The notes under the pieces: generated by a model
Database searches by the model: none
What the model saw: the letters and a program-made list of their open reading frames with translations, nothing else
What the model was told of the DNA's origin: nothing
Assembly (NCBI GenBank): GCA_945905295.1
Contig: CAMDPX010000006.1
Coordinates: 22-64,021, forward strand
Source: Planctomyces sp. SH-PL62
GTDB lineage: Bacteria > Planctomycetota > Planctomycetia > Planctomycetales > Planctomycetaceae
Length of the DNA: 64,000 nucleotides
Direction of reading: 5' to 3'
Translations under genes and position numbers: made by a program
Shown: positions 1,553 through 63,584 of the stretch, in pieces
Layout of the letters: every line of letters starts with the position of its first letter
Position numbering within the stretch: the stretch's first letter is position 1

Positions 1553-1631
1553 GTAGGTTGGGACTCTGTCCCGACCCAGTTGGCCAGGATGCAACCCCAA
1601 CCCGGTTGGTCGGGACGGAGTTCCAACCTAC
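1553..1631. repeat. REP-like palindromic element, family A (GTAGGTTGGGACTC.GTCCCGACC ... GGTCGGGACGGAGT.CCAACCTAC)
   Basis: 24-nt arms at 1553..1576 and 1608..1631 are reverse complements (one mismatch). Same arms recur at 57363..57418, and as a half-site at 7135..7158. Lies between the csrA stop and the kinase start. Confidence 0.9.
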
Positions 1632-5806: not shown

Positions 5807-7801
5807 ATGACCAACAACAAGTCTGCATCAACCGCAACGACTCAGCCGGGCGACGAGCATCGCTTTGACAAGTGGATCGCGTTGCTGGCCTTGATCGCGA
5901 TCAGCGGGTATCTGGTCGTGAGATTCGGCGGCCACGCGGATGACTCGCTCGGCCCATTCACGTTGACCGAATGGCCGTTGATCACCGCGCTGGCGGGAGG
6001 CGGTCTGCCGCTGGTGGCCGAGCTGACTTGGAAACTGGTACGTCGCGAGTTCGGCTCGGACCTTTTGGCCGGCATCTCGATCGTTACGTCGATCGTTTTG
6101 GGCGAGTACCTCGCGGGGACGCTCGTCGTGCTGATGCTCTCTGGCGGCGAGGCGCTCGAAGCCTATGCCATGCGGAGCGCGTCGTCGGTCCTCGCCGCGT
6201 TGGCCCGGCGCATGCCGTCGCAAGCTCATCGCAAAACAAACGAGACGATTCACGATGTCGCGGTCGATCAAGTCGTCGTCGGCGACACGCTGCTGGTGTT
6301 TCCGCACGAAGTGTGTCCGGTCGACGGTACGGTGCTCGACGGGCACGGCACGATGGATGAGTCGTTCCTCACCGGCGAACCGTATCTGATGCCGAAGTCC
6401 TCCGGCTCGACGGTCATCTCCGGCGCACTGAATGGCGAAGCGGCGTTGACGATCCGAGCGGACAAGCTCGCGGTCGATTCGCGGTACGCTCAGATCATGC
6501 ACGTCATGCGCGCGGCCGAAGAGCGTCGCCCGCGCCTGCGTCGCTTGGGCGATCAACTCGGCGCGTTCTACACACCGCTGGCGGTCGGACTCGCGTTGCT
6601 GGCATGGGGGCTAAGCGGTGACGTGCATCGGTTCCTCGCCGTGTTGGTCGTCGCGACACCCTGCCCGCTGCTGATCGCGATTCCGGTAGCGATCATCGGT
6701 TCGATTTCGTTGGCGGCTCGACGCGGCATCATCATTCGCGATCCGTCGGTACTCGAACGGATTGAGACCTGTCGCACGGCGATCTTCGACAAGACCGGCA
6801 CACTGACGTACGGGCAACCGGCGCTGACCGAGATCATCGTCGGAGACGGGGTCGGGAGTCTTTTTCAGGTCGGCCCAATGTCAGCAGAATTGCATCGCGA
6901 ACTGGATGGCCGACCTGAGAAAGACTCCCGACCCCTTTCTGCGGACAAAGCGTTGTCGCTGATCGGAAGCGTCGAGCGGTACTCAAAGCATCCGCTCGCG
7001 GCGGCGATCCTGAACGTCGTTCGCGAGCGACACCTCGCGCTGCAAGACGCCACTGAAGTTCACGAACTTCCCGGCCAAGGATTGACCGGTGTTGTCGCTG
7101 GTCGCCGCATTCGCATCACTAGCCGAGGCAAGCTGGTCGGGACGGAGTCCCAACCTACAACCGTCGACCTCCCGCCGCAGGCGGCCGGGATGGAGTGCAT
7201 TGCGATTATCGACGACCTGATCCCGGTGACTTTGCGGTTCCGCGATCAGCCGCGAGCGGATGGGGCGTCGTTCGTGAAACATCTCGCGCCGAACCATCAC
7301 TTCCAGCGGGTGATGATCGTCTCCGGCGACCGCGAGTCGGAGGTCCGTTATCTCGCCGATCTTGTCGGCATCCACGAAGTCCACTTCAGCCAATCGCCCG
7401 AGCAAAAGCTGGCCATCGTGCGGGCCGAAACGCAACGAGCCAACACCGTCTTCGTCGGCGACGGGATCAACGATGCACCGGCACTGACGATCGCGACCGT
7501 GGGCATCGCGTTCGGCGGCAGCAGCGACATCACCTCCGAGGCCGCGCACGCCGTGATCCTCGACAGCTCGCTGAGCAAAGTGGACGAGTTGCTGCACATC
7601 GGCAAACGTCTGCGGCGGATCGCGCTGCAAAGCGCGGTCGGCGGAATGTTGCTGAGCCTCGTCGGAATGCTTCTCGCCGCGTCCGGTCACTTGCCGCCGG
7701 TCGCCGGCGCGATCGCTCAAGAAGTCATCGACTTGCTGGCCGTGTTGAACGCACTGCGCGCGGCGCGGTCGTCTGGAAGTCTGACGGATTTCGGCTCGTA
7801 G
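5807..7801 (+). CDS. heavy-metal P1B-type ATPase, TPCP-motif (P1B-5-like) subtype
   Basis: DKTGTLT phosphorylation motif, [11 protein letters not shown] hinge, TGEP-type actuator (FLTGEPYL), TM motif [11 protein letters not shown]. No N-terminal CxxC metal-binding domain and no C-terminal extension. Confidence 0.85.
6848..6935. repeat. intragenic palindromic element (GGGGTCGGG family) inside the ATPase CDS
   Basis: Arms GGGGTCGGGAGTCTTTTTCAGGTCGGCC (6848..6875) and GGCCGACCTGAGAAAGACTCCCGACCCC (6908..6935) match at 27 of 28 positions. Translated in frame as ...[30 protein letters not shown]... Confidence 0.85.
7135..7158. repeat. half-site of REP family A inside the ATPase CDS
   Basis: GGTCGGGACGGAGTCCCAACCTAC is identical to the right arm at 57395..57418. 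Translated as ...[10 protein letters not shown]... No left arm nearby. Confidence 0.8.
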
Positions 7802-17142: not shown

Positions 17143-20100
17143 TTATCGCTTCACGACGCACTCGTCGTGATTCAGTAATGCTTGAGCCAGCACCGTGGCG
17201 GCGGCCGCTTGAGGAACTGGAATCGTTGTGTCGCGCGGAGTCTGTCCGATCTTCAGAAGTTGCTCGGCCTCAGTCGCGTGCTGCGTGAAGTGATCGAGTT
17301 GCTCGCGATAGAGCTTCGTCACGATCTCCACTTCGCGAGCATCGGGGCGGCGGCTCAAGCAACGCAGGAAACCGTGTTCGATCATCGCCGGCAGTTCGCC
17401 CTTCGCGTCGCGATGCAGAGCTTCTCCGAGTACGCGGGCGGCTTCGACGTATTGGACTCCGTTGAGCAGGATCAAGGCTTGCAGCGGTGAGTCGGTCCGT
17501 TCGCGTTTGGCGATACAGACCGCTCGGCGCGGCGCGTCGAAGGCGACCATTGCTGGTGGCGGTCCCGTGCGACGCCAGTTCGTGTAGAGGCTGCGTCGGA
17601 AGACGCCGTCACCGGCAGTCGGTGCGGCGGGCTTGAACGATTCGCTCATCTCATAAGGGTTCACCGGCGGGCCGCCGAGTTGCCTCTTGAGCAGTCCAGC
17701 CGCCGCGAGTGCGTTGTCGCGAATCATCTCCGCCGGCAATCGGAATCGCGGCCCGCGCGCGAGCCATTCGTTGTCTGGATCGTCGGCCATCGTCTGTGCG
17801 TCAGCGAGACTCCGCTGCCGATACGTCTGGCTGAGGACGATCGTTTTCACGAGCCGCTTCAGATCCCAACCGCTGTCGATGAAGTCGAGCGCCAGCGCAT
17901 CCAACACCTCCGGATAAAGCGGTCGCGCCCCTTGACTGCCGAAGTCTTCCGACGTCTTCACGAGCCCACGTCCGAAGAGGCTCTGCCAAACGCGATTGAC
18001 CGTCACACGAGCCGTCAGTGGATGCCGTCGATCGGTCAACCACTTCGCGAGGCCGAGCCGATTGCGGGGCGCGTCTTCGGGGAACGGAGACAAAGACGCG
18101 GGAGTGCCGGCCTGCACTTCCTCGCGACGTTGCGCGTACTCGCCACGGAAGAGCACATACGCCTTCTTTGGCTGCGGCAGTTCTCGCATCACCATCAGTT
18201 CTTTGATGCCGTCGCCGAGCTTGTTGAGCTCCGCCCGCGCGGTTTGTAACGCGGCGAGGTACACGGCCCATTCGGCATCGGCGGTCGCGAGGTAATAATC
18301 GAAGAGCTTCTCGCGTGTGGCTTGGCGATTCACGACCTCACGAATCTCGTCATCACGCGACACCGCTTCGGCCTCGAGATCCGTTAGCTCACGGCCAAAG
18401 ACCCGGAAGTCGTCGATCATGCCCCCCTTGAACCCGCGATCCCGGAACCGCTCGCCCAGCGAGATGTTGTCGCCACCGCCGCCGGTGATTTCTTTCGTCA
18501 GTTTGTCCTTCACGATCTCGACACCCGGTTGCCGAGCCAAGCGACGACCGTTGATGAACATCTTCAATCCGTCCGCACGGCTGCTGCCGTCCGAAGAGAC
18601 GACGACGTGCATCCATTCGTTGAGCGGCAGCTTGTCCGTGGCTGCGATCGAGACCGCATTGCCCGGCCAAAAATGGATCAGCGACCACTTCAAGCGTCCC
18701 TCTTCGATCAGCAGTTCGTAGCCTCGGCTCCCAGCATCGGTCCACGCTCGCGAGCGATGAAATACGACGGCACGGTCCTTCACATCGGGCGTCTGCAACC
18801 ACAATGCGACCGAGAACGGCTGATGCCGGCCGAAGTTCCCCAGCGGCAAATCGACAGGATCATCGCCAGTGAATTCGATCGCTTGTCCGTCGTGCCCAGA
18901 CACAAGTTTGTTCTCGCCGCGGAGCGTTGCCGGTTGGCCTGATTTCGTTTCGTTGGCAAGCTTCCCTTGATCGACCACATCGAACCGGAAGCGCGCGAGT
19001 TCCCCGATCACACTGGCATTGTTCGTCTTCGTGAGCGGCACGGCGCTAGCCGCCGGTGTTTGCTGAGGACCGGCGGCTAGCGCCTTGCCGCTCACAGGAC
19101 GGCTTCCGCGATTATCAACCTGACGATCAACAAACCACTTGTCGAATGCCTCGCGCCGCGACTCCCGCAGCTTCGGAGCGTGCCGCTCAAGCTCTGCGAC
19201 CTTTTCTTGCAGCACGACCAGACGCTGCTTGGTCGGGACATCGGACAGCGCCAACGTCGGCGTCGGCGGCGACTGCGTGAAGTATGAATACAGCCCCGCC
19301 TCGTCGATGTTCTGGAACATCGCGAAGAGCTGATAATACTCGCGCTGCGAGATCGGATCGTACTTGTGATCGTGGCAGCGGCAGCATTCAAAGGTCAGGC
19401 CGAGGAACGTCGTCGCGAAAGTCTGCACGCGGTCGGCGACGTACTCGACGCGATACTCCTCTTCGACGCTGCCCCCTTCCGACTCTTGCTGGTGCAGGCG
19501 ATTGAAAGCGGTCGCGAGGATCTGCTCGTCGGTGGCGTCCGGCAGCAAGTCACCGGCCAGTTGCCAGGTGATGAATTGATCGAACGGTTGATTGGCGTTG
19601 AACGCCCGCACGACCCAGTCGCGCCACGGCCACATCTCCCGCTCGCGATCGACCTGAAAGCCGTAGCTGTCCGCATACCGCGCGGCGTCGAGCCAATCGG
19701 TCGCCATCCGTTCGCCGTAATGCTCGGACGCCAGCAGCCGATCGACGAGCCGTTCGTTAGCGCCGGGTGCTTGATCATTCAGAAAGGCTTCGACCTCGGC
19801 CGGAGTCGGGGGCAGCCCGGTCAGATCAAAGGTGAGTCGTCGAATGAGCGTCGTGCGATTCGCTTCCGGTTGCAGCCGCAGCCCACGTTTGGCGAGGCTC
19901 CCCTGAATCAAAGCGTCGATGCCCGTCGCGGGACCGGGCTTGAGCGGAATGAGCGACCAATGGTTCTCGTACTCGGCCCCTTGCTCGATCCAGAGTCGCA
20001 GCGTCCCGATTTCCTGCGCCGTGAGTTTGTCGAGCTTCGATGACGACGGCGGCATGTGCTCATCGGCATCCGTACTGAGAATCCGCCGCACGAGTTCGCT

Positions 20101-20331
20101 CTCGTCCGGCTTTCCGATCACGATCGCTCGCGACTTGACCGCCACGTCACGATCGTCGAGACGCAGATCCGCCTTCCGTTTCTTGGCATCCGGACCATGA
20201 CAGTGAAAGCACTTGTCCGACAAGATCGGCCGCACATCGCGATTGAACTGCACTCGGTCGGCGGCCCAGCCGGTCCCTTCAGCCAGAATGCACAACACGA
20301 CGGAGAGCAATTTGTTACAAGTCGAGTTCAT
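17143..20331 (-). CDS. PSCyt1 / DUF1549 / LamG-like (concanavalin-type) / DUF1553 domain protein, secreted
   Basis: FNRDVRPILSDKCFHCHGPDA, RRLTFDLTGLPPT, CCRCHDHKYDP, SPLQALILLNG. Central segment FSVALWLQT...YELLIEEGRLKWSL...WMHVVVSSDG...MFINGRR resembles Laminin_G_3. Confidence 0.9.
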   Translation of the reverse strand: MNSTCNKLLSVVLCILAEGTGWAADRVQFNRDVRPILSDKCFHCHGPDAKKRKADLRLDDRDVAVKSRAIVIGKPDESELVRRILSTDADEHMPPSSSKLDKLTAQEIGTLRLWIEQGAEYENHWSLIPLKPGPATGIDALIQGSLAKRGLRLQPEANRTTLIRRLTFDLTGLPPTPAEVEAFLNDQAPGANERLVDRLLASEHYGERMATDWLDAARYADSYGFQVDREREMWPWRDWVVRAFNANQPFDQFITWQLAGDLLPDATDEQILATAFNRLHQQESEGGSVEEEYRVEYVADRVQTFATTFLGLTFECCRCHDHKYDPISQREYYQLFAMFQNIDEAGLYSYFTQSPPTPTLALSDVPTKQRLVVLQEKVAELERHAPKLRESRREAFDKWFVDRQVDNRGSRPVSGKALAAGPQQTPAASAVPLTKTNNASVIGELARFRFDVVDQGKLANETKSGQPATLRGENKLVSGHDGQAIEFTGDDPVDLPLGNFGRHQPFSVALWLQTPDVKDRAVVFHRSRAWTDAGSRGYELLIEEGRLKWSLIHFWPGNAVSIAATDKLPLNEWMHVVVSSDGSSRADGLKMFINGRRLARQPGVEIVKDKLTKEITGGGGDNISLGERFRDRGFKGGMIDDFRVFGRELTDLEAEAVSRDDEIREVVNRQATREKLFDYYLATADAEWAVYLAALQTARAELNKLGDGIKELMVMRELPQPKKAYVLFRGEYAQRREEVQAGTPASLSPFPEDAPRNRLGLAKWLTDRRHPLTARVTVNRVWQSLFGRGLVKTSEDFGSQGARPLYPEVLDALALDFIDSGWDLKRLVKTIVLSQTYRQRSLADAQTMADDPDNEWLARGPRFRLPAEMIRDNALAAAGLLKRQLGGPPVNPYEMSESFKPAAPTAGDGVFRRSLYTNWRRTGPPPAMVAFDAPRRAVCIAKRERTDSPLQALILLNGVQYVEAARVLGEALHRDAKGELPAMIEHGFLRCLSRRPDAREVEIVTKLYREQLDHFTQHATEAEQLLKIGQTPRDTTIPVPQAAAATVLAQALLNHDECVVKR
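19042..19084. repeat. intragenic palindrome (GGCGCTAGCCGCCGGT - 11 nt - ACCGGCGGCTAGCGCC)
   Basis: Perfect 16-nt arms inside the CDS, translated as ...GKALAAGPQQTPAASAV... The GCGCTAGC core also occurs at 54986..55057. Confidence 0.85.
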
Positions 20332-23794: not shown

Positions 23795-23864
23795 GGCGAG
23801 CCGGAGGGCGTAAGCCCCTGGACGGTCTCTTCGATGTCCGGGGGCTTACGCCCTCCGGCTCGCC
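23795..23864. repeat. REP-like palindromic element, family E (GGCGAGCCGGAGGGCGTAAGCCCC ... GGGGCTTACGCCCTCCGGCTCGCC)
   Basis: Perfect 24-nt arms. Relatives lie at 43315..43392 and 46678..46755. Confidence 0.9.
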
Positions 23865-31235: not shown

Positions 31236-32570
31236 ATGATGCCCATGACTCGCACGTTGTCCCGATTGCTGACTGACTACGGCATGATCTTCGTGCTGGC
31301 GTTGCTGTGCGCGTTCTTCAGCGTGGCGACTTACAGCGAACAATCTCCGACCGGTGAAGCGGCGGCTCGGCAAGTCGCGAAGACGCTCGATTCACAGTTT
31401 GGCAAGACACCGCGCGTGTTGATCGTGGCTCGCGATCAAGCGGACGAAGCGTTGTTTGCGAGCAAGCTCGATGCAGCCCTGTCGAGCAGCGGAGCGAAGG
31501 TGTTGGCTGTCGTGAAAGGGGAGCCGAAGGACGCTCGCGCGGAGCTCCAGAAAATCGTGGCGTCGGGTGAGTCGCTCGACGCGATCGCCGGTACGCGCGC
31601 GACGGCGGCGTGGCTGGTCTTCGCGGATTTGAAGGCCGACTTCCCGAAGCTCGGCGATCCGCAATTGGTGCAGCCCCGGACCGAGAAATGGCCGAACTTT
31701 TTGAAGTCGGAGAACCTCGTCAACATCGCCAATCAGATTGCGGTGATCGCGATCATCGCGATCGGGATGACGATGGTGATCATCACCGGCGGGATTGATC
31801 TTTCGGTCGGCAGCTTGATCGCGCTGTCGGCGGTGCTGGCCTCGCGGTTCATTCGCGACTACGCGGGGGCCGAGCAAGCGACCGCACTCGGCATGACACT
31901 GGCCGGCATCGCAGCGATTCTGGTCTGTGGGATGATCGGAGCATTCTCCGGCGGGATGATCACGGTGTTCGGCATCCCGCCCTTCATCGTCACGCTGGCC
32001 ATGATGCTGGTGGGGAGCGGATTGGCTTACATCCTCGCGGCGGGTCAGTCGATCTATCAGCTTCCCGATTCGTTCGTGTGGCTCGGTCGAGGCGAAGGGT
32101 TGTGGAAGATCCCGAACGCCGTGTTGCTGATGGCGATTCTGTACGGAGCCGCGCACGTGCTGATGTCGCGAATGCGGCTCGGCCGGCATTTGTATGCGGT
32201 CGGCGGCAATCGCGAGGCGGCGCGGCTGTCCGGCGTGCCGGTGTGGCGCGTGTTGATGTTCGCGTACATCGCGAGTGCTCTGCTGGCGGGACTCGGCGGA
32301 GTGATCATGGCGTCGCAGCTCAAAAGCGGCTCGGCGACCTACGGCAATATGTACGAACTGTATGTCATCGCCGCAGTCGTTGTCGGCGGCACCAGTCTCA
32401 GCGGCGGCGAAGGAAAAATGTTCGGCACGTTGATCGGAGCCTTCACGATTGCCGTCATCCAAAACGGAATGAACCTGACGAACGTCGAAAGCTACACGCA
32501 GAAAGTCGTCCTGGGAGGCGTGATTCTCGGAGCGGTGCTGCTCGACAAGATTCGGCATCGTTCTTCGTAG
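31236..32570 (+). CDS. sugar ABC transporter permease (RbsC/FrcC-type) with an extra about 100-aa N-terminal segment
   Basis: ORF 30702..32570 trimmed to the ATG at 31236 (MMPMTRTLSRLL...). GGIDLSVGS motif and multiple TM segments. The TAG stop at 32568..32570 is part of the GTAG head of the next REP. Confidence 0.85.
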   Translation: MMPMTRTLSRLLTDYGMIFVLALLCAFFSVATYSEQSPTGEAAARQVAKTLDSQFGKTPRVLIVARDQADEALFASKLDAALSSSGAKVLAVVKGEPKDARAELQKIVASGESLDAIAGTRATAAWLVFADLKADFPKLGDPQLVQPRTEKWPNFLKSENLVNIANQIAVIAIIAIGMTMVIITGGIDLSVGSLIALSAVLASRFIRDYAGAEQATALGMTLAGIAAILVCGMIGAFSGGMITVFGIPPFIVTLAMMLVGSGLAYILAAGQSIYQLPDSFVWLGRGEGLWKIPNAVLLMAILYGAAHVLMSRMRLGRHLYAVGGNREAARLSGVPVWRVLMFAYIASALLAGLGGVIMASQLKSGSATYGNMYELYVIAAVVVGGTSLSGGEGKMFGTLIGAFTIAVIQNGMNLTNVESYTQKVVLGGVILGAVLLDKIRHRSS

Positions 32571-32632
32571 CCGAAGTCGTGAGACTTCGGAGGTGTGGTG
32601 AGAAACATCCGAATTCTCACGAATTCGGCTAC
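32567..32632. repeat. REP-like element, family F (GTAGCCGAAGTCGTGAGACTTCGG ... GAATTCGGCTAC)
   Basis: Hairpin identical (reverse orientation) to 2090..2109. GTAG/CTAC termini. Confidence 0.8.
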
Positions 32633-43176: not shown

Positions 43177-43314
43177 GACGACATCCGATCGGGTGCGAAA
43201 CAAAAAAGTGCGACGGCGATTCTACTGATCGGCGATGTTCGGCCAAGCAGCGAGGCGTTGGCTTGGTGGATGTGTCCGAGTTCAGACTTTAGTCTGTCGG
43301 CTCGCCGTCGAATC

Positions 43315-43392
43315 GGCGAGCCGTCGGGCGTCAGCCCCCGGACGCATTCCGAAACCGCGACTTGTCCGGGAGCTAACGCTGCCCGGCTCGCC
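43315..43392. repeat. REP-like element, family E (GGCGAGCCGTCGGGCGTCAGCCCCCGG ... CCGGGAGCTAACGCTGCCCGGCTCGCC)
   Basis: Imperfect inverted repeat in the divergent spacer. Shares GGCGAGC...GCGTCAGCCCCC with 46678..46755. Confidence 0.8.
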
Positions 43393-43397
43393 GGAGA

Positions 43398-45697: not shown

Positions 45698-48412
45698 TCA
45701 TTCCACATACAAGAAGCGATTTGAACTGAGCAGTGATTGGCACAACAGGGCGAACGCCTGCCGAGCTGGATCGGGGGGAGGCGCGGTGTTGGGCGGTATC
45801 GTTGGCGGCGGAGTCTTCGGCCGGAAGACCTCGGTCTGCGCTGTGACGAAGGCGACCGCTTCGGCGGATTCGGCTTCGGTCGGATCGGTTCCGAAGACCA
45901 GTCGCCACGCCAGCACGATTTGCGATTTCACATCCGGTCCGGCGGCGGTGGCGATTCGCTCGGCCAAGGCGTGCGAGTGGTCTTGCACGAACTCGCTGTT
46001 CATCAGGAAGAGCGATTGCGGCGAGACGGTCGAAGAGTTTCGCTGCGGGCAATTCGGGTCGAGCACCGGCGGGTCGAACGGGTCCATCACGCTGAGCGGC
46101 CGGCTGCGACGGACTTGCACGTAGAGACTGCGGCGGAATTCCTCGCCGTTGAGCGGCACGAGTTTGTCGGGGACGCCGTTGCCGTTGATGTTGTCGATGC
46201 CGAGCACGAATTGACCGATCTCGTCCTGCATCACCGGCACTGGTTTGCCGCCGAGTTTGGCGTTCAGCTTGCCGCTGATCGCGAGTGTCGCGTCGCGAAC
46301 TTCCTCGGCCTGCAATCGACGCAACGGAAAGTGACTGAGCAAGCGATTGTCGGGATCAACGGTGTCTGAGGCAGCCGTGCGCGACGACGATTGACGATAG
46401 GCGGTCGACAACAGCATCTGGCGATGAAGCGACTTCAGCCGCCAACCGCTCGCGACGAAATCGTTGGCCAGCCAATCGAGCAGTTCGGGATGCGAAGGCC
46501 GCTCACCTTGCACGCCGAAGTCGGCGGGAGTGCCGACCAAGCCCCGGCCGAAGTGCTGCATCCACACGCGATTCACGAGCACTCGCGCCAGCATCGGGTG
46601 TTGGCCGGTAGTGAGCCAGCGGGCATAGGCGAGACGTCGGCCGCTGGTTGGGAGCGCTGGGTCGTCCACCGGTATCTGGCGAGCGGGGGGCGTCAGCCCC
46701 CCGGTGCTTTGATCGCTGTCTGAAACCACCGGGGTGCTGACGCCCCCCGCTCGCCTGTGAGAAATGCTTTCGGCCAAGATCGTCAACTCGCCAGGCTCGA
46801 GTTGCTGCTTGGGCGCGAAGTGCTCGCCGCGCGAGAACAGAAACGTCGGCGGGATCACGTTCGGCGTTTCGTTGAGGACCATCAGAAACTCTTCCGGAGG
46901 CTTCGTGCCGCGCAGTTCGGTGGCTTGCTTGCTGAAGGCGTTGACCTCTTCCGCCGCCTTTCCGTCGTACAGCGGCAACGTGCCGCCGTTGACGTTGATG
47001 CTGGGGTGATCCTTCAACAACGCTTTTTGTTCGGGCGTCCGTTTGGCCTCTGGCGTGTTGTGAGCCGTTCGCAACGAGTCGCGCAGCTCTTCCGGCTTCT
47101 TGAGGAGTTCACGTTCCAGGATGCGCTGAATGTGTTCGTCGAGTTTCTTCTGGCGATCGGCGTCGATCTTCGCGGCGCTGGCTTCAATCTCGGCCGCCTT
47201 CGTGCGATCGGCGTCGGTGTAGAGCGTCACCAATCTCCCGTTCGGCACACGCCAGTGTTTCCAATCGTAGGCTGGCTCGAAGATCGCGCGGAAGCGGTAG
47301 TAGTCCGCTTGTGTGATTGGGTCGTACCGGTGGTCGTGGCACTGAGAACATCCCAGGCTCAGCCCCAGCAGTGAGGTCGCGACTGTCTTGATCGTTTCCG
47401 CCATCACCGCATTTCGCGCGATGTTTTGATCGACCGCACCGGAAGCGGTGCCGTCGGGAGCCATCCGCAGGAAGCCGGTGGCGGCGAGCTTGTCGAGGTT
47501 CTCCGCCGAGAGGTTCGCGTGCGGCAGCGGCACCAGTTCGTCGCCGGCCAGTTGTTCGAGCAAGAACTCATCGAAGGGCTTGTCGTTGTTGAACGCGCGA
47601 ATCACGTAGTCGCGATACTTGAAGGACCACGCTCGCACCGGGTCTTCGTCGGTATAGCCATCCGAGTCGGCATAGCCGGCGACGTCGAGCCAATGCCGTC
47701 CCCAGCGCTCTCCGTAGCGCGGCGACGCAAGCAGTCGGTCGATCAATCGCTCGAAGGCATCCGGCTCTGAGTCATTGGCGAACTCTTCCACCTCATCGGG
47801 CGTGGGGGGCAGACCGAGCAGGTCCAAGGTCGCTCGGCGAATCAGCGTGCGGCGGTCGGCTTCGGAGGTGAACGAGAGTTGTTTGGCTTCGAACTGCGAC
47901 AGCAAAAACGAATCGATCGGTCTCTCGGCAGGCCGTCGCCCACCGTCTCGCGATGCGAGCGGGATCTGCGGTCGAACAACCGGTTGGAACGCCCAGTGGT
48001 TTCGTTCCTCCGCGGTGAAGAGGCTCTCTTCGGGCCGCTCCGGTTCCGGAGCGGCGATCTTCGCGCCGCCAGCGATCCAGCGACGTAAGAGATCTCGCTC
48101 GGCGGGAGTCAGCTTGCGTTCGACAGGCGGCATCTCGCCAGATTCGATTCGCTTCAGCAATAAACTTTGATCGGGCTGACCGGGGCTGATGGCCGGTCCT
48201 GTCTCGCCACCTTTTTCGAGCAGCCTCTTCAGTCGGACATCGAGCTTTGCTTCGGTCTTGCCCGCTTCACCGTGACATTGAAAACAGTGAGCTTTCAAAA
48301 TCGGACGGACGTGCTTTTCAAACGTCAACTCCGGGGTGTCGGCCGCGAACGCCGACAGCGACGTTGCCATCCAGCACAGCCCCAACAAACTACGAATCGC
48401 AATACGAGTCAT
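45698..48412 (-). CDS. PSCyt1 / DUF1549 / DUF1553 domain protein, secreted
   Basis: Start at the ATG at 48412 (MTRIAIRSLLGLCWMATSLSAFA). FEKHVRPILKAHCFQCHG, RRATLDLLGLPPT, CSQCHDHRYDP. Confidence 0.9.
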   Translation of the reverse strand: MTRIAIRSLLGLCWMATSLSAFAADTPELTFEKHVRPILKAHCFQCHGEAGKTEAKLDVRLKRLLEKGGETGPAISPGQPDQSLLLKRIESGEMPPVERKLTPAERDLLRRWIAGGAKIAAPEPERPEESLFTAEERNHWAFQPVVRPQIPLASRDGGRRPAERPIDSFLLSQFEAKQLSFTSEADRRTLIRRATLDLLGLPPTPDEVEEFANDSEPDAFERLIDRLLASPRYGERWGRHWLDVAGYADSDGYTDEDPVRAWSFKYRDYVIRAFNNDKPFDEFLLEQLAGDELVPLPHANLSAENLDKLAATGFLRMAPDGTASGAVDQNIARNAVMAETIKTVATSLLGLSLGCSQCHDHRYDPITQADYYRFRAIFEPAYDWKHWRVPNGRLVTLYTDADRTKAAEIEASAAKIDADRQKKLDEHIQRILERELLKKPEELRDSLRTAHNTPEAKRTPEQKALLKDHPSINVNGGTLPLYDGKAAEEVNAFSKQATELRGTKPPEEFLMVLNETPNVIPPTFLFSRGEHFAPKQQLEPGELTILAESISHRRAGGVSTPVVSDSDQSTGGLTPPARQIPVDDPALPTSGRRLAYARWLTTGQHPMLARVLVNRVWMQHFGRGLVGTPADFGVQGERPSHPELLDWLANDFVASGWRLKSLHRQMLLSTAYRQSSSRTAASDTVDPDNRLLSHFPLRRLQAEEVRDATLAISGKLNAKLGGKPVPVMQDEIGQFVLGIDNINGNGVPDKLVPLNGEEFRRSLYVQVRRSRPLSVMDPFDPPVLDPNCPQRNSSTVSPQSLFLMNSEFVQDHSHALAERIATAAGPDVKSQIVLAWRLVFGTDPTEAESAEAVAFVTAQTEVFRPKTPPPTIPPNTAPPPDPARQAFALLCQSLLSSNRFLYVE
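46678..46755. repeat. intragenic REP family E element (78 bp) inside the DUF1553 CDS
   Basis: Arms GGCGAGCGGGGGGCGTCAGCCCCCCGGTG and CACCGGGGTGCTGACGCCCCCCGCTCGCC match at 28 of 29 positions. Translated in frame as ...RRAGGVSTPVVSDSDQSTGGLTPPAR... Confidence 0.85.
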
Positions 48413-48511
48413 CTGCAAGTGCTCCCACAAAGGCCATGGGACACTGTAAATGCCGTCGACGGGGCATGACAGTCCTCGACTTGTCTGCCTGCTGACCCGC
48501 CCCGGTACGCC

Positions 48512-50564: not shown

Positions 50565-50689
50565 GATGACTTCGTTCGGGAAAAGGCGGGAAATCTCGGT
50601 TGGTGGGTGAAGGACGGTATCGGTCATATCAGCAGCCGTCAATTGATGAAAACCGTCGACGACGGCCACAAATCCTGTTCGGCGCGAAC

Positions 50690-50783
50690 TAACCCGAAGC
50701 GTCAGCGAGGGCGAACGCTTAATACGGCCAGGATTCGGAGATTGAACCAGTGAAGCATTCGCCCTCGCTGGCGCGGCGGGTTA
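50690..50783. repeat. palindromic element (TAACCCGAAGCGTCAGCGAGGGCGAA ... TTCGCCCTCGCTGGCGCGGCGGGTTA)
   Basis: Imperfect about 26-nt arms in a divergent intergenic region. Confidence 0.8.
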
Positions 50784-50804
50784 GTTTACGAGGGATTTTG
50801 CAAA

Positions 50805-55280: not shown

Positions 55281-58200
55281 TCAGCGTTCGCCGCTGACAA
55301 ATTTCGCATACGCAGCGGCTCCCCATTGGCGGAACAGTTCCGCCGCTCGATTCCGGTACGAGACGGCTTGCGCACTTGATCCTGTCGGATCGCTCGCCGC
55401 AGCGGCCAAGTCGTTGGCCATCGCTTCGATCTGTAAGTAGCCGAATTGCGAGGCCGCTTTCATCGCCGCTTCGTACCCGGCCAGAGCGGCGTCGCGCGAG
55501 CCGCTCAGCCTCGCGAGTTCCGCGGCGAGCAACCGCTCTTTGTGCGCGAAGTTGTGCGGACAGCGGGACGCCCACTTCGCCAATTTCTTCTGAGTCGATC
55601 GGACCGCCGCGACGTGACCGCGGCGTGCGAAGCCGGTCGCACGAGTGGTCAGTGCCGCCCGAATCAATCCCGTGAGAAAATGATGCTCAGCCGAATGCAA
55701 CATGCCGGGCGATTCCTTGAGGTACTTCGCCGACGCCTGCGACGTCACCCAGGCCGCGTCGTATTCGCGCCACAGATACTGCGTCAGCATCTTGTTGACG
55801 AAATAATAGTGCGTGAAATGCCGCGATCCGAACTGCGACAGCTTCGCGACGTAGGCGGCTTCATCAAACGTGCCGTCGCTGAACGTGTCGCGGCCGCGTG
55901 TCTCGCCGCGCAGATTGCGAATCGTCTGTCGCACCGATTCGATCGCGGCAATCGGCTCGCGCAAGCTGAGTGGTTTCAGAAACGCGAGGAACTCATCGGA
56001 CTTCGCGAGGATCTCTGGAAACGGCACGCCGCGCATCAGCAGGCTTTGCGTCGTCCCCGCGCACGAGCAGCCGGTGTGAAACAAGTCGCCGGTGGCTCGG
56101 CCCGATTCATACGTCGTGCGCCACAACGACTCGGCTTCGGTCGCTGGACGCATCCAACTGGTGCCGAAGTAGCCGACGACGAAACTGACTTCAGGCCGTT
56201 GCCGTTCCTGCTGGTACTGATCCACCAACGACAGCGCGAACCGGCCATAGTCATCGCCGAGCGGATGATTGCCCATCACGCCCCCTTGGAAGATCGCTCC
56301 GAAAACCATCCAGGCGATTGCGCAGTCAGGCGTGTTGCCGTGCTTCAGACATTCGTTGACGATCTTCGTCGAGACGGCAACGCAGAGTTCGGGACGGACC
56401 TGATACGCGGCCTTCGCGCACGCATTCGTCAATCGCACGGCGGTTGCCAGCCGAGCGTCTTTCATCAACGGCAAATTGAGCAGTTCGGCAGCCGGACGTT
56501 TGCCGATGCGGAACTTGGCCTTGATGAAGTCGATGATGAACAGCGGCGGAATAAAACCCTTCGGCAGCGACAAGCCGAAGAGCGCCACCGCCTCGCGGCC
56601 GACGGCATACGCATCCGCGAAGCGAGCCATATCGGTCAGGAAGTGAATCAGCTTCTCGTAAGCATCGGCCTTGTCGTTGTCCGACTGAGCCAACCGGACC
56701 GCGCTGCGATAAAAGTCTTCGGCCCGATCGAAGGCGAGCACCTGCACTGCCTGCTCGCCCGCCTTCACGTAGTAGCGACCGGCCTTCACGAATTGATCGG
56801 AGCCTTCCAAATGCAGCGCGATGTCTTCGGGCTTCGCTTCGTCGGTCGATTCCAGCGACGCCGCGAGTCCGGCGTGATGCGTCTTCCGCGTCTCCTTCGC
56901 CAAATGATTGACGACCGATTCGCGAATGCGATCGTGAAACGCTTCGACCTCGGCCTGCATTCCGGGACCGCTGGATCGAATCAGGTGATCGACTCGTAGC
57001 ATCGTCGTCAGTCGCGGCGAGACCTGCTGCAACTGAGCCGCTTCGAGAATGTTCTTCAATCGGGTCGGATGCCCGGCCACCGCAACGACGTGCAAGAATC
57101 GCTGAGCCTCTTCCGACAACCGACCGACTCGCGCCCACAGCACATCATCGAGTCCCGTGCCGCCAATCGCGGACAGATCGAGTCCCGCGTTCAAGTGCCG
57201 AGCCAACTCGTAAACGAAATACGCGCTGCCGCCCGATTGCTCGACGATGCGATCGGCGTTGGCTTCGACGTTCGGGAGGTCGTCGCGTAGCAATCGCCGC
57301 GCGAGCGTGCGTGTCTCGGCGGACGTGAGCGCTTCGACTTTCAATTCGCGCCACGAAGCGGAGTAGGTTGGGACTCCGTCCCGACCCTGCGACTGGTCGG
57401 GACGGAGTCCCAACCTACTTTCGCTGCTTTCCGCCGCCGTCAGCGCTTTCAGGCAGTCGCTGACGCCGATGTACTCACTGCGATACGCCAACAGCAGCAG
57501 CAATCGCGGAGGCTCGGCCGAGGTCAACAAGTCGGTCAGCAGCGCCGCGCTGTCGGTGTCTCCCCACTGCAAGTCATCCAGATAGACCACCAGCCGCTTC
57601 CGCTTTCCGATGCGTGACAACAGCTCGCGAAAGGCTTGGAACGCATCGCGCCGTAGTTCTCGCAAGTCGCTCGAAACCGCCTGCTCGCGGCAGAGCTTTT
57701 CGATCAGCTTCACTCGCTTGAGCACCGGAAAAATCCGCGCGAGCGCCGCGACGTTCTTCGGCAAGAGATCTGCCGCCGGAGTCGTAGGCTGACGCAGATA
57801 CTGAGTCACCGCGTCGATCAGCGAGTCGATCCCTTTGTACGGCACCGATTCTTGTTCGTAACAGCGGCCGGTCAGGACGACGGTGTTTTGACGATGCGAC
57901 AGATCATCCAGAAAGTGTTGAATCAACGTGCTCTTGCCGGCCCCCGACCGGCCATGCACGCGACAGACGATGGTGCGGCTGGCAACCGTTTCCTCGAACG
58001 TTTGATTCAATTCTTCGAGATGCCGTTCGCGTCCGATGAAGGGCATCGACGTCGGAGCGAACGAGTCTTCCTCACCCGCGCTCGTCTCGTCCGAAGCAAA
58101 CGCCGCGACAATTTCGGAACCGTGCGGCCGCTTGGCTGGATCACGCTGCAGCAACTTCACGCACAGAGCGTTCAAGTCGTCGGGCACTCCAATCACAATG

Positions 58201-59522
58201 TCGGCGGGCGGGGGCGCGTCTTGAGTCTGCTTACGTTGCAGAATCTGCGAAGCCTTGCCGAGGATCGGCAGGCGTCCGGTGATCGCCTGGAAGAGCATTA
58301 CTCCGACGGCATACCAGTCACTGGCTTCGGTCAATTCGCGGCCGGCGGCTTGTTCCGGAGCCATGAAGCCGATCGTGCCGGCGATCTCATGAGTCCCCGC
58401 GGAACGAGAAGACGCTCCGTCCGTCGCCGACACCTTCGGTCGCGACAATTCCGCGACGAGTCCGAAATCGAGCAACACGACCGTCCCCGTTTTTCGCGAG
58501 ACCAAGGCGTTGGCTGGCTTCAGATCGCGATGCAGCTTGCCGCTTTGATGCAACGCTCGCACCCCCGCGCACAACTGTCGAAAGACAGACCTCAGCCGCG
58601 TGAAGTCTGCCACCTTCGCGGCCGTTCGTTCCGGAGGAGCCGCCGCGGATTCCACCTCACCGCCACCTGACGAAGCAAACGGGCCGATGATCGTCTGCTC
58701 GCTCGTGTGGTCGACTCCAATGATCGTGCGCTCGTTCGCCGCCGTCGCCGAGCCCGGCTCAACGCTCGGCTCCATCACCGTGGGTTCGCTCAACCCGGCA
58801 TCCGCCTCAGAAACGGAGTTGATGATGGTTGGCTCGATATCCGGCTGCGTCAATTCGTCGGCGTCGATTGGATTCGATTCAACGGAGAATCGCGAATTTT
58901 TATTCGCGAGAACTTGCGTGGGCGCATCGGCCGCGCTGCCGTCAATCGGATCCATCTGCGTTTCGAGAACGGCCTGTTCCCGCACGACCTCGCTGACTTT
59001 CGCGGCGGGAACATTCACCGTTTCGTGTTCGACGGCGGCTTTCGTAACCATCTGCAATTGAGCGTTCGGCCGATCAACCGTCTCGCCAAAATCCGCGTCG
59101 GACGGCGCGATCTGCCGAGCCATCGTCTCGGCCAGCGCTGGATCGGAGGTGATCGTCGGCTCAACCAAGGCGACGGTTGGCGCTTCGCGCGCGTACTCCA
59201 AGAAATCGGCTGCGTCCTCGATCAACTCCATCACGAAGAACCACTGCTCGCCGTCCGAGATCAATTCGTAAAGCGGCACGAGATTCGGATGCGACAGTTC
59301 GGTGAGCGCCCGGAACTCTTGCTTGAACAGGAAGACGGCTGAGGGATCGATATTCTTGAGCGTCTTCAGCGCCAGCCGATTGCCGCTCTCGCGATCAATC
59401 GCCTCATAAACAACGCCCATGCCTCCCGCGCCGAGCTTGCGGACGATTTGGAAACGTTCGGTCCCCGTGAAGAGTTCATCCGCGATCGGAGGCGTTGCTG
59501 GCATGCTGCGACTCGTTGACAT
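55281..59522 (-). CDS. Ser/Thr protein kinase fused to an AAA/STAND-type ATPase and a long helical-repeat C-terminal region
   Basis: - Kinase: LGAGGMGVVYEA, ALK, HRDLKPAN, DFGL, and APE-like FMAPE.
- P-loop: VHGRSGAGKSTL. Walker B: LVVYLDDLQWGD.
- An about 190-aa acidic insert lies between kinase subdomains V and VI. Confidence 0.85.
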   Translation of the reverse strand: MSTSRSMPATPPIADELFTGTERFQIVRKLGAGGMGVVYEAIDRESGNRLALKTLKNIDPSAVFLFKQEFRALTELSHPNLVPLYELISDGEQWFFVMELIEDAADFLEYAREAPTVALVEPTITSDPALAETMARQIAPSDADFGETVDRPNAQLQMVTKAAVEHETVNVPAAKVSEVVREQAVLETQMDPIDGSAADAPTQVLANKNSRFSVESNPIDADELTQPDIEPTIINSVSEADAGLSEPTVMEPSVEPGSATAANERTIIGVDHTSEQTIIGPFASSGGGEVESAAAPPERTAAKVADFTRLRSVFRQLCAGVRALHQSGKLHRDLKPANALVSRKTGTVVLLDFGLVAELSRPKVSATDGASSRSAGTHEIAGTIGFMAPEQAAGRELTEASDWYAVGVMLFQAITGRLPILGKASQILQRKQTQDAPPPADIVIGVPDDLNALCVKLLQRDPAKRPHGSEIVAAFASDETSAGEEDSFAPTSMPFIGRERHLEELNQTFEETVASRTIVCRVHGRSGAGKSTLIQHFLDDLSHRQNTVVLTGRCYEQESVPYKGIDSLIDAVTQYLRQPTTPAADLLPKNVAALARIFPVLKRVKLIEKLCREQAVSSDLRELRRDAFQAFRELLSRIGKRKRLVVYLDDLQWGDTDSAALLTDLLTSAEPPRLLLLLAYRSEYIGVSDCLKALTAAESSESRLGLRPDQSQGRDGVPTYSASWRELKVEALTSAETRTLARRLLRDDLPNVEANADRIVEQSGGSAYFVYELARHLNAGLDLSAIGGTGLDDVLWARVGRLSEEAQRFLHVVAVAGHPTRLKNILEAAQLQQVSPRLTTMLRVDHLIRSSGPGMQAEVEAFHDRIRESVVNHLAKETRKTHHAGLAASLESTDEAKPEDIALHLEGSDQFVKAGRYYVKAGEQAVQVLAFDRAEDFYRSAVRLAQSDNDKADAYEKLIHFLTDMARFADAYAVGREAVALFGLSLPKGFIPPLFIIDFIKAKFRIGKRPAAELLNLPLMKDARLATAVRLTNACAKAAYQVRPELCVAVSTKIVNECLKHGNTPDCAIAWMVFGAIFQGGVMGNHPLGDDYGRFALSLVDQYQQERQRPEVSFVVGYFGTSWMRPATEAESLWRTTYESGRATGDLFHTGCSCAGTTQSLLMRGVPFPEILAKSDEFLAFLKPLSLREPIAAIESVRQTIRNLRGETRGRDTFSDGTFDEAAYVAKLSQFGSRHFTHYYFVNKMLTQYLWREYDAAWVTSQASAKYLKESPGMLHSAEHHFLTGLIRAALTTRATGFARRGHVAAVRSTQKKLAKWASRCPHNFAHKERLLAAELARLSGSRDAALAGYEAAMKAASQFGYLQIEAMANDLAAAASDPTGSSAQAVSYRNRAAELFRQWGAAAYAKFVSGER
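57363..57418. repeat. intragenic REP family A element inside the kinase/ATPase CDS
   Basis: Perfect 24-nt arms GTAGGTTGGGACTCCGTCCCGACC / GGTCGGGACGGAGTCCCAACCTAC. Translated in frame as ...[20 protein letters not shown]... Confidence 0.9.
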
Positions 59523-61020: not shown

Positions 61021-61107
61021 GGAGAGGTGACAGAGCGGCCGATCGTGCTGGTCTCGAAAACCAGTGTACCCGCAAGGGTACCGAGGGTTCGAATCCCTCC
61101 CTCTCCG
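61021..61107 (+). tRNA. tRNA-Ser (anticodon CGA)
   Basis: Acceptor stem GGAGAGG/CCTCTCC plus discriminator G. Anticodon stem CTGGT/ACCAG with loop CTCGAAA. Long variable arm GTACCCGCAAGGGTAC. T-arm GAGGGTTCGAATCCCTC. Confidence 0.9.
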
Positions 61108-62604: not shown

Positions 62605-63240
62605 ATGATTCCCAAGAATCCTGACGGCGTTTTGTATGTGTTGCTGATTGGGAGAATTTCAACTCCGCACCAGAACATTGAGAATATCGATGCGTCGTTC
62701 GTGCCGCTCAGGAAAATGATCGCAGATCTGTACGACGGCGAGATTCAGATCAAGCAACTCGGCGAGCGTGGCAGCGGGATGGATCCCATGCGTCAATCGA
62801 TCCGTGAGGCCGAGGATGAGATCGACGAAGGGATCGTCGATCTCGTCATCATGGAAGATTTGTCGCGAGCACACCGCAATTTGGCGTACTTGACCGGCTT
62901 CGTGTTCAACGCGGTCGATCACGAGACGCGAGTCATCGCGCCAGGTGATAGCTTCGACACCGAGGACGAAAACTGGGAAGCGATGTTGTCCGTCGCCGCC
63001 TCGCGTCATGGGATGACCGTTCCGGAAGCTCGTCGGAGGGTTAATCGGACGTCGGATTTTGCGTTCTTCCAGGGTGGCATGGTTCAAAAAATCCTTCCTG
63101 GCTACATCAAACTCACAAAGGATCAAGCCAACAGCGGACAGTTTGGCCCCAAAGGTCTTCGGATCGCCAAGGTCTCCGAATACACGCCGATCATCATGGA
63201 GATGAAACGTCGCACGGAGCGTGGCGACTCGTATCCGATG
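62605..63240 (+). pseudogene. serine recombinase (resolvase-type catalytic domain), C-terminally truncated
   Basis: VLLIGRISTPHQ (catalytic Ser context) and VIMEDLSRAHRNL. Protein-like sequence stops around 63240, after which the frame reads as junk overlapping the PIN fragment. Confidence 0.65.
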
Positions 63241-63242
63241 AC

Positions 63243-63584
63243 GTGTTGTTTTCGGAAAAGTTCACCTTCTTGTCGTCTCAGCACACGCTCTTTGAAGTCG
63301 AGAAGTATTTGCCACACGTCGCGAAAAGGATTCGACGTGACGAGACAGACTTGTGGCGCGAATTCCAACTTCTGCCAATCATCGCCGTTCAGCCGCGCGA
63401 GTACGATTCCGAGCTAACGCGAGCCACGGAATTGATTGGGCAACGCGATCCGAAAGACGTGCATGTGCTGGCGATGGCTCTGCACTTCAGCATTCCAATC
63501 TGGACCGAAGATCGAGATTTTGAAGGATTGCCAGACGTTACCGTCCACAAGACCGCAGACCTCATAACGCTGATGACTTCGTGA
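63243..63584 (+). pseudogene. PIN-domain toxin fragment lacking the N-terminal acidic motif
   Basis: ...QRDPKDVHVLAMALHFSIPIWTEDRDFEGL... matches the C-terminal two-thirds of PIN nucleases. No upstream (V)xDTN-type start. Confidence 0.55.

Follow-up and report, generated by a model that had tools for sequence, protein, structure and literature searches.

A GTAG-tagged REP dimer inserted in frame within a kinase-STAND NTPase gene of a planctomycete

How does a bacterial gene come to hold a perfect palindrome and still read through it? By definition REPs and REPINs are extragenic, and most work on them has been in Proteobacteria; such elements are barely described in Planctomycetota. In the 64-kb stretch of planctomycete DNA analysed here (the window), one of them lies within the gene for a Ser/Thr kinase fused to a STAND NTPase (Table 1). 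We propose that a non-autonomous GTAG-REP dimer would have inserted recently and in frame into this PknK/MalT-like kinase-STAND-NTPase gene and that it may persist there as a near-neutral passenger loop; taken as a whole, we consider this account probable.

Table 1. Coordinates, in window positions, of the REP elements, their parts, the host gene and the deletion allele.
Feature	Position	Strand	Remark
Extragenic REP dimer, 31-nt spacer, 1 mismatch per arm	1553..1631		Upstream of protoglobin histidine-kinase gene
Exact REP singlet	7135..7158	-	In frame within P-type ATPase ORF 5792-7798 (+)
Host gene: 1413-aa Ser/Thr kinase + STAND NTPase + helical C-terminal region, intact	55281..59522	-	
GTAG-REP head-to-head dimer (REPIN-like), 24+8+24 nt	57363..57418		Encodes residues 702-720 of the 1413-aa ORF on the (-) sense strand
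Left REP arm	57363..57386	+	GTA + 9-bp stem (one G.T) + TCC loop; same as family master sequence
8-nt spacer CTGCGACT	57387..57394		
Right REP arm	57395..57418	-	Exact reverse complement of left arm
4 further nt, sense GAAA	57419..57422	-	With the 56-nt element gives the 60-nt (20-codon) excess over L001 and L003
44-nt deletion in contigs L006 and L007	57359..57402, equivalently 57365-57408		Bounded by 6-nt direct repeat ACTCCG

The sequence of the element is GTAGGTTGGGACTCCGTCCCGACC-CTGCGACT-GGTCGGGACGGAGTCCCAACCTAC. The first-pass annotation had described a perfect 24+24-nt palindrome, and the arms are indeed fully complementary and 8 nt apart. Once the flanking A/T is counted the palindrome extends to 25+8+25 nt, and a repeat search returned the inverted arms as 57362-57386 and 57395-57419 (25 nt each, 100% complementary, gap of 8 nt). 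The predicted hairpin has a free energy of -67.7 kcal/mol as RNA (z -10.9) and -37.1 kcal/mol as DNA (z -11.8), and its stability is therefore well beyond chance. Each 24-nt arm also folds by itself into a 9-bp stem with one G.T pair and a 3-nt loop (-7.1 kcal/mol, z -3.2). Folding is more stable for the GTAG-bearing strand than for its complement (-7.1 versus -4.8 kcal/mol), and GTAG begins each arm on its own strand. The length of the stem-loop, its stem within the usual 6-9 bp and the terminal GTAG on both arms are those of GTAG REPs, whilst an inverted REP pair with a short spacer, able to form one hairpin with a 25-bp stem and an 8-nt loop, is the arrangement of a REPIN. The element is two GTAG-tagged REPs joined head-to-head, and is REPIN-like.

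It belongs to a dispersed repeat, as had been claimed. With up to 3 mismatches allowed, the 24-mer has 5 matches in the window against 0.00 expected (100 shuffles): those at 57363, 57395 and 7135-7158 are exact and those at 1553 and 1608 carry one mismatch each, giving three loci of the family where none is expected. L107 has kept the dimer of 1553..1631 at its orthologous locus, but the spacer there is 5 nt, 26 nt shorter, a change that a coding frame would not tolerate; the intergenic status assigned to this copy thus stands. The singlet at 7135-7158, overlooked in the first-pass annotation, lies where the nucleotide-binding domain of the P-type ATPase has a variable loop, and encodes (L)VGTESQPT there. 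What this ATPase loop contains differs between orthologues: in some it is empty, in others it carries a REP singlet or dimer, or palindromes of other families. In the window, five or more palindromes from several families lie in frame in genes. A search of the window against Rfam matched a tRNA as its sole hit, leaving the palindrome without an Rfam family.

The exact 24-mer recurs in more than 106 stretches from 27 planctomycete species-representative MAGs, a dispersed multi-copy family in which, as in GTAG REPs generally, dimers are frequent and the head-to-head arrangement predominates (84 head-to-head dimers versus 36 singlets among 120 elements). Spacers range from 0 to 98 nt, with 1 nt the commonest. 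Copies were taken as in-gene when 100 codons or more of open frame preceded and followed the element; 31 of the 91 classifiable copies qualify, compared with 58% of random positions. The same event has occurred in many other genes. In-gene copies encode recurring peptides (singlets read as VGTESQPT in 9 of 13) and many of their hosts are backed by Pfam, with domains that flank or enclose the element: Pkinase/nSTAND1/FGE-sulfatase, PKS KS/AT, PSD1, dihydrolipoamide dehydrogenase, FAD-oxidase_C and P-type ATPase. In-gene dimers favour one length class modulo 3 (16/19 versus 22/44, Fisher p=0.013), a bias that survives removal of the 49-nt class (8/11 versus 7/29, p=0.009) and points to a frame filter. 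When the REP-carrying Lpd and ATPase were aligned to solved structures the loop positions were confirmed, with homologues too distant to give insertion boundaries. About a third of family copies lie in frames that are read through, and the same loops have been colonised repeatedly by several families. A second STAND kinase, in L046, was considered as a case of the equivalent loop and set aside, as its first REP dimer lies later, in the helical domain.

Conservation ends at GTAG; the flanks show a weak base preference alone and no conserved flanks were found around dimers. Of 81 dimers, 20 have complementary bases at -1 and +1, as many as chance would give, with no sign of a target-site duplication or extended palindrome. 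Direct repeats of 2 nt flank 12 of 79 dimers, slightly above expectation, and establish no target-site duplication.

Comparison with orthologues identifies the element in the kinase gene as an insertion. The closest orthologues of the host protein (P0002, 79% identical; P0003, 78%; P0004, 65%) all align on both flanks, in keeping with the claim that recognisable protein continues in the same frame on either side. P0002 and P0004 have exactly 20 residues (60 nt) fewer at this site and P0003 an unrelated 8-residue difference. The palindrome was found in none of the orthologous genes of L001, L002 and L003 (3/3), so the REP dimer has the presence-absence pattern of a mobile element. This is the alignment that the first-pass annotation had called for. 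Because orthologues are without these 60 nt, the element is an insertion, and by sequence comparison it would postdate the split from the nearest sampled relatives. The earlier suggestion of a recent event agrees with both arms being perfect and identical to the master sequence. One detail weakens the best explanation: the element is 56 nt long, not a multiple of 3, and the net insertion is 60 nt, which leaves 4 frame-restoring nt unaccounted for; the linker alignment around 57419..57422 is ambiguous. At the position of the insert, the alignment shows homologues with anything from 0 to 70 extra residues. Neither the extra 23 residues of P0002 nor the 60-70-residue linkers of P0005-P0017 contain an inverted repeat or REP-like peptide, and both were rejected as REP-derived.

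The host ORF matches Pkinase (E 1e-39) and AAA_16 (E 3e-24), with a weak match to nSTAND1; the database form of the protein has 1407 aa and starts 6 codons later. The AAA_16 NTPase is MalT/Apaf-1-like and its Walker A motif GRSGAGKS is at residue 524; the protein belongs with the STAND class, in which a P-loop NTPase with helical and winged-helix domains is fused to an effector domain. As had been noted, translation of the 1413-aa ORF crosses the palindrome without a stop; a further 690 codons follow with neither stop nor frameshift. The insert is read in one of the two frames that avoid TAG within GTAG and, since the net gain is 60 nt, the gene stays open. The insert would be translated as a 20-residue stretch rich in Gly/Pro/Ser/Arg/Asp. 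Downstream of it dN/dS is 0.07-0.17, the same as upstream, these being pairwise values too coarse for the short time since insertion.

Structural modelling places this stretch in a loop. An AlphaFold (AF2) model of the fragment has a mean pLDDT of 92.9, with the insert in a coil (220-238) of the lowest internal pLDDT (67, versus 92-98 around it), between helix 689-703 and strand 723-728 of the host protein. Foldseek matched the model to CED-4, Apaf-1 and MalT (E 1e-10 to 1e-9), and the best TM-score was to MalT 8bob (0.62), followed by Apaf-1. On this model the fold around the insert is a STAND NTPase and the insert is a predicted surface loop before strand beta5, inside the alpha/beta core. 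The expected surface loop was therefore recovered in the model. The position given in the first-pass annotation, between the P-loop module and the helical-repeat region, needs refining: the insert is within the NTPase core fold and not in a linker strictly between modules. Within the protein family this loop is a hot spot for indels.

These data suggest how the insertion may have been accommodated. A net gain of 60 nt in a frame avoiding TAG would leave the gene open and the 20-residue insert would be translated, presumably in a protein that retains function. Near-neutral passage in a permissive loop is the most likely fate, because this loop is where indels concentrate in the family. The perfect 25-bp stem could at the same time be a liability, as a mediator of slipped-strand deletion in DNA and as a potential target of double-strand RNases in mRNA.

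A deletion allele is seen. In L006 and L007, two same-strain assemblies otherwise 100% identical to the window, loss of 44 nt frameshifts the host gene into ORFs of 771 aa (P0122) and 637 aa (P0121). It was considered as an assembly artefact and judged unlikely to be one, as its junction needs read support at k=141, two assemblies agree and a third, made with MEGAHIT, holds the element whole. The frameshifted allele suggests that gene loss is tolerated in part of the population, which weakens the claim of a functional protein, and REP-mediated deletion could be a route of gene inactivation. Assemblies made independently also hold the sequence of the window here (MAG GCA_947498715.1 at NCBI and one contig each from MEGAHIT and SPAdes), so the palindrome is not an artefact of the window assembly. 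Assemblers do stumble on palindromes and one allele is a length variant, but the full identical element in at least four independent contigs from different assemblers, and the same 24-mer in 27 other genomes, make an assembly or chimera artefact vanishingly improbable. Two anchored pattern scans of JGI metagenomes for the empty and full alleles gave 0 matches, the species being evidently absent from that collection.

The deletion allele is also one reason to ask whether the insertion has inactivated, or is inactivating, its host, with the ORF intact through recency and the locus becoming a pseudogene. Inactivation could come about if the 25-bp hairpin (very stable as RNA) blocks or destabilises the mRNA, or if 20 residues inside the NTPase alpha/beta core break the NTPase switch; the perfect arms fit the recent event that it supposes, and the split gene in L006 and L007 shows gene loss to be compatible with persistence in the population. 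Homologues nevertheless take up to about 70 extra residues in this loop, the downstream codons are undisturbed, and many genes of housekeeping type hold members of the REP family in frame. In at least one case three species share an in-gene REP at orthologous positions, so genes with such an insert are long-lived. The time since insertion is too short for pairwise dN/dS to resolve. We regard inactivation as unlikely. Another proposal, that the palindrome is maintained for its use to the host or to the repeat family, as a regulatory RNA or DNA structure (an RNase site or pause site in the ORF, for example), a landing pad for REPs or a useful loop peptide, draws on that three-species site, where 24/24 REP positions are invariant versus 75% of flanking columns (P about 1e-3). 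It also draws on the ATPase loop with its alternative occupants, on L099, in which one dimer arm has been replaced by a different palindrome, and on the dominance of one frame among in-gene singlets. Conservation of the master sequence would be expected from continued family replication or repeated insertion too, survival in permissive loops accounts for hot spots without function, the host proteins are unrelated, close orthologues of the kinase do without the element and no Rfam family matches; maintenance for use thus seems highly unlikely. The better-conserved REP nucleotides at the three-species site could reflect targeting of, or re-insertion at, in-gene hairpins, or a host-level role. 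That REP palindromes systematically supply protein loops across the clade, beyond occasional intragenic accidents, is at present a tentative idea, and we would sooner expect it to fail than to hold.

The near-neutral passenger reading assigns movement of the REP to a RAYT, an HUH tyrosine transposase that would act, as in other GTAG REPs, on a single-stranded hairpin; mobilisation in this way is suggested by analogy. Neither phmmer with E. coli RayT (E<=10) nor an HUH...YxxNP regular expression found such a protein among 5249 ORFs of the window and 116 loci (0.86 Mb), and no candidate ORF was seen between paired REPs in the same set; since the sampled loci cover a small fraction of each genome, this is weak evidence. 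It leaves some room for a hairpin MITE moved by a non-RAYT transposase, or for spread by replication or repair, such as template switching at hairpins. That no Y1 transposase lies in the REP-containing sequence would fit such an origin, as would an intragenic share (34%) atypical for classical REPINs and the imprecision of the insertion (56 versus 60 nt, no defined target). The GTAG tag, the 9-bp stem with its G.T on the tagged strand and the head-to-head dimers are nonetheless hallmarks of GTAG REPs (PMC3733652), and in R. baltica, the only planctomycete in that study, tyrosine-transposase genes are numerous and flanked by matching repeats. Given also how little of each genome was sampled, a non-RAYT origin appears improbable.

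What the locus provides is a cleanly dated in-frame insertion of a perfectly preserved palindrome in the gene of a large signalling protein, with empty-site orthologues, structural context and a derived deletion allele, and the census of 27 MAG species indicates many REP-encoded loop peptides in planctomycete proteomes. In annotation such inserts resemble lineage-specific low-complexity inserts. The data bear on models of REPIN population persistence and on hairpin repeats as a source of indel hot spots and pseudogenes. In-frame REP insertion is an event known in kind, of which this is a clean example; intragenic GTAG REPs and Rickettsia palindromic elements (RPEs) set the principle earlier, and the known picture is unchanged.

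The host gene resembles PknK/MalT-type STAND kinases in its Pkinase domain, AAA_16 NTPase and helical C-terminal region, and homologues are named PknK; it differs from them in the loop of 20 residues that the REP adds ahead of strand beta5 in the NTPase core. GTAG-tagged REPs are known inside genes, where dimers encode 20-30 aa (Di Nocera, De Gregorio & Rocco 2013, PMC3733652). The PVC bacterium Opitutus terrae (GTAG-17/18/19) has the largest number of in-gene copies, with about 70 entries that include a Ser/Thr kinase, and the planctomycete entries are those of R. baltica, GTAG-20/21, in short hypothetical ORFs (PMC3733652). The present family shares with GTAG REPs the tagged stem-loop, the prevalence of head-to-head dimers, of which some have spacers of 1-2 nt, the presence of several families per genome, copies fully inside known genes and hosts in the PVC superphylum. 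Its stem and loop sequence differs from those described, and the supplement text of PMC3733652 contains neither the 20-residue peptide nor RLGLRPD. About a third of its sampled copies are in-gene, in a family that spans 27 MAG species. Like REPIN-RAYT systems it has two inverted REPs with a short spacer able to form a long hairpin (PMC3116915), a master sequence that dominates and is retained in related genomes, and singlets that look like decayed dimers; it is unlike them in that no cognate RAYT was found in the window and 116 loci. REPINs are described as extragenic (Bertels & Rainey 2011, PMC3116915), whereas these copies, the one in the kinase gene among them, are often intragenic and in frame within long ORFs. 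The likeness to RPEs drawn in the first-pass annotation holds as a way of working: in both, palindromes insert in frame and genes remain open, at sites that should be surface loops and in the present case are modelled as such, here with an intact ORF, a low-pLDDT loop and a family indel hot spot. As far as the summarised descriptions go, the two have unrelated sequences, the intragenic R. conorii elements RPE-4 and RPE-6 being CGTC-tagged rather than GTAG-tagged, and RPE-1 is a longer palindromic insertion (Ogata et al. 2000 via PMC3733652). The RPE way of working is seen here not in a reduced intracellular genome but in the large genome of a free-living environmental planctomycete.

The kinase gene that carries the palindrome at 57363-57418 reads through it with neither stop nor frameshift. 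Among 5.8 billion proteins searched there are full-length homologues, of which the 40 best were aligned. Exactly 20 residues are absent at the insert site in orthologues P0002 (79% identity) and P0004 (65%), and P0003 (78%) has a short unrelated difference there. In the alignment of the orthologous DNA a 60-nt gap faces the palindrome plus four neighbouring bases, and none of the three genes has an inverted repeat at this position. The presence/absence comparison thus supports the first-pass annotation, and, judged from these alignments, the palindrome is an insertion. By itself the 56-nt palindrome would put the frame out of register; 60 nt are gained in all, and the four extra bases lack an explanation. 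Against the three orthologues dN/dS is 0.07-0.17 over the 688 codons that follow the insert and 0.11-0.13 over the NTPase part upstream of it. The insert aside, the kinase gene is well kept.

The palindrome is real DNA and not an artefact of a single assembly, since the identical sequence occurs in the NCBI MAG GCA_947498715.1, in one MEGAHIT contig and in one SPAdes contig. Its perfection had been claimed from reading alone and is borne out by a repeat finder, which reports arms of 25 nt, 100% complementary, with 8 nt between them. Single-stranded, it folds as one 25-bp stem (-67.7 kcal/mol, z -10.9 as RNA; -37.1 kcal/mol, z -11.8 as DNA). When as many as 3 mismatches are allowed, the 24-mer has five matches in the window against 0.00 expected, among them both arms of the extragenic copy already recognised at 1553-1631. 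That copy is common to a sister species (syntenic locus L107, 87% nucleotide identity) and has one mismatch per arm, whereas both arms in the kinase gene are perfect and identical to the commonest sequence of the REP family. This contrast is consistent with a comparatively recent insertion, as had been suggested. Two scans of JGI metagenomes gave 0 matches to the empty or the full kinase allele; the species is evidently not in that collection.

The 90%-identity cluster of the kinase protein holds two fragments, P0122 (771 aa) and P0121 (637 aa). Their source contigs, from MEGAHIT (L006, L007), are 100% identical to the window but for a 44-nt deletion within the palindrome; a third MEGAHIT assembly has the full element (L009). 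The deletion is bounded by copies of ACTCCG, one in the left arm and the other across the right junction; what remains is GTAGGTTGGGACTCCG, and the frame is shifted. Slipped-strand mispairing, which classically produces microhomology-bounded deletions across hairpins, would account for the event. The deletion allele is probably real. If so, the palindrome has already inactivated or split the kinase gene in part of the population, and any claim of a need for the decorated gene is therefore tempered. Near window position 54370 L006 further lacks 6 nt; this in-frame loss, within the ORF that lies downstream of the kinase gene, shows strain-level variation among otherwise identical assemblies.

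A model of residues 485-905 (alignment of 90 homologues; mean pLDDT 92.9, pTM 0.89) places the REP-encoded residues (fragment 218-236) in coil between helix 205-219 and strand 239-244. The loop that had been expected is therefore what is predicted, with a block pLDDT of 67, the lowest within the domain. Foldseek identifies a STAND NTPase fold, with the highest TM-score (0.62) to MalT 8bob and the next to Apaf-1 and CED-4. Strand order in the model puts the loop before beta5 of the P-loop core, so the insert lies within the NTPase domain; the first-pass annotation had set it between the P-loop module and the helical region, which does not strictly hold. The position is a permissive site, since homologues in the family alignment hold 0 to ~70 extra residues there.

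Features of the window and REP-bearing genes at loci from other planctomycete MAGs
Feature	Location	Strand	Description
Host kinase ORF	55281-59522	-	1413 aa, reads through palindrome; Pkinase and AAA_16 domains
REP palindrome	57363-57418		arm GTAGGTTGGGACTCCGTCCCGACC / spacer CTGCGACT / arm GGTCGGGACGGAGTCCCAACCTAC, read from window sequence
Extragenic REP dimer	1553-1576 and 1608-1631		one mismatch per arm; 31-nt spacer
Exact single REP arm (singlet)	7135-7158		in heavy-metal P-type ATPase ORF, in frame, encodes (L)VGTESQPT; missing from first-pass list
P-type ATPase ORF (REP host)	5792-7798	+	
Other-family palindrome	6848-6935		in ORF 5792-7798 (+), same ATPase gene, in frame; 28-nt arms GGGGTCGGGAGTC...
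Other-family palindrome	19031-19095		in ORF 17143-20331 (-), in frame, linker of PSCyt1/PSCyt2/PSD1 protein
Other-family palindrome	46678-46755		in ORF 45698-48430 (-), in frame, linker of PSCyt1/PSCyt2/PSD1 protein
tRNA gene	61021-61107	+	Rfam, 48.6 bits
Resolvase-family ORF	62605-63417	+	PF00239 on matching contig L006; near tRNA gene
REP host	L046:843-5744		Pkinase-nSTAND1-FGE-sulfatase gene, other MAG; two dimers in frame, residues 635-662 and 1251-1271
REP host	L057		polyketide synthase; element between KS and AT domains
REP hosts	L099, L013		PSCyt/PSD1 proteins; PSD1 domain split
REP host	L101		dihydrolipoamide dehydrogenase
REP host	L090		FAD-linked oxidase
REP host	L060		U32 peptidase

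Each arm alone consists of GTA, a 9-bp stem with one G.T pair and a TCC loop. The GTAG strand folds at -7.1 kcal/mol against -4.8 for its complement, in which G.T becomes a C.A mismatch. The GTAG-tagged REPs in the catalogue of Di Nocera et al. (PMC3733652) have just this anatomy; a pair with outward GTAG ends is there a 'head-to-head (HH) dimer', which Bertels and Rainey (PMC3116915) term a 'REPIN'. A scan of one genome per species in GTDB r232 shows the exact 24-mer to be present in over 106 stretches of 27 assemblies among the matches listed, and nearly all the assemblies listed are labelled Planctomycetota (Pirellulaceae, Planctomycetaceae, 'Planctomyces sp.'). The window and listed loci contain 204 arms, counted as 84 HH dimers and 36 singlets, several of the latter with a decayed partner arm; dimer spacers there range from 0 to 98 nt, 1 nt (49 nt overall) being commonest. 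Sequence conservation stops at GTAG. Neither an extended palindrome beyond the arms nor a convincing target-site duplication was found among the family copies, and Rfam has no family for this REP.

The kinase palindrome is one case of the regular behaviour of its family, because these REPs are often intragenic. The best stop-free frame across each element was taken for the 91 copies that are not too close to a locus end; in 31 of them it stays open for 100 codons or more in both directions, against 58% of random positions in the same loci. The hosts are real genes, since Pfam domains flank the element on either side or are split by it. Forward arms recurrently encode RLGLRPD or VGWDSVPT and reverse arms, among others, SGRSPNL; no in-gene use was seen of the third forward frame, which holds the TAG of GTAG. 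Dimers with a length of 1 mod 3 make up 16/19 in genes against 22/44 elsewhere (p = 0.013), and 8/11 against 7/29 when the 49-nt class is removed (p = 0.009). Such a bias is what a reading-frame filter leaves behind.

The ATPase singlet peptide sits in a loop of the nucleotide-binding domain. In orthologues of 73-87% identity the same loop is empty or holds the same singlet, the dimer of this REP (P0130, P0148) or peptides typical of other palindrome families, and the syntenic L107 carries another GTAG element at this point. The PSD1 proteins L099:36-3956 and L013:3-3644 are orthologous. L013 carries a REP dimer; in L099 an other-family palindrome (AACCCGAAGCGTCAGCGAGGGC..., also at window 50687-50786) stands in frame in place of the left arm and spacer, which makes it a nested or replacement insertion. 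Three species share one orthologous in-gene site; all 24 of its REP positions are the same in them, compared with 75% of the columns that flank it (P ~1e-3). Such loop re-use and invariance could reflect survivorship in permissive loops or insertion that favours hairpins already present; ongoing replacement by the master sequence, the commonest 24-mer of the family, could also produce them, as could selection on structure. That REPs are actively targeted to or maintained inside genes, or have a host role, we consider rather unlikely.

Palindromic repeat families are dense in the window, where the repeat finder reports 36 inverted-repeat pairs. GTAG or CGTAG heads occur on several of them (among others 17049-17128, 12540-12605, 3141-3204 and 32567-32632), which fits the coexistence of many REP families. 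The alignment of the ATPase to CopA (3rfu) breaks exactly at its other-family palindrome; CopA 447-448 adjoin each other there, with query residues 355-383 left unaligned, which implies a putative insertion of ~29 residues after the DKTGT motif. The family at 46678-46755 has extragenic relatives at 23795-23864 and 43314-43393. Just upstream of the extragenic REP dimer, positions 1450-1545 are ~97% identical to L107 against 85-87% around them and contain a 12-bp stem (GCCGCGCGAAAC...GTTTCGCGCGGC). This stretch has no Rfam match and may be a conserved RNA or regulatory element beside the protoglobin histidine-kinase gene. The tRNA gene and resolvase-family ORF may lie at the border of an integrated element.

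Judging from other GTAG REPs, an HUH tyrosine transposase (RAYT) probably mobilises the element in the form of a single-stranded hairpin. An E. coli RayT query, motifs and inspection of ORFs between paired REPs revealed no RAYT in 0.86 Mb (the window and 116 loci, a small sample of each genome). Rhodopirellula baltica is reported to have many HUH tyrosine transposase genes with matching repeats (PMC3733652).

The observation is real and the earlier reading of the palindrome correct; the phenomenon is already known, because intragenic GTAG REPs and the Rickettsia RPEs precede it. The RPEs gave the earlier proof of the in-frame intragenic principle (cited in PMC3733652), and the same catalogue describes in-frame GTAG singlets as well as dimers encoding 20-30 residues. 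Of its intragenic entries ~70, one a Ser/Thr kinase, are from Opitutus terrae, a PVC bacterium; its planctomycete entries are limited to a few copies from R. baltica, in short hypothetical ORFs. The kinase element resembles the catalogued REPs in its GTAG-tagged stem-loop, HH dimer and in-frame intragenic position, but differs in sequence, and neither that sequence nor its peptides appear in the tables of PMC3733652. Our data indicate that in-frame REP insertion is common across an entire planctomycete clade. To the known systems the kinase case adds a clean empty-site comparison, a structural placement and a deletion allele.
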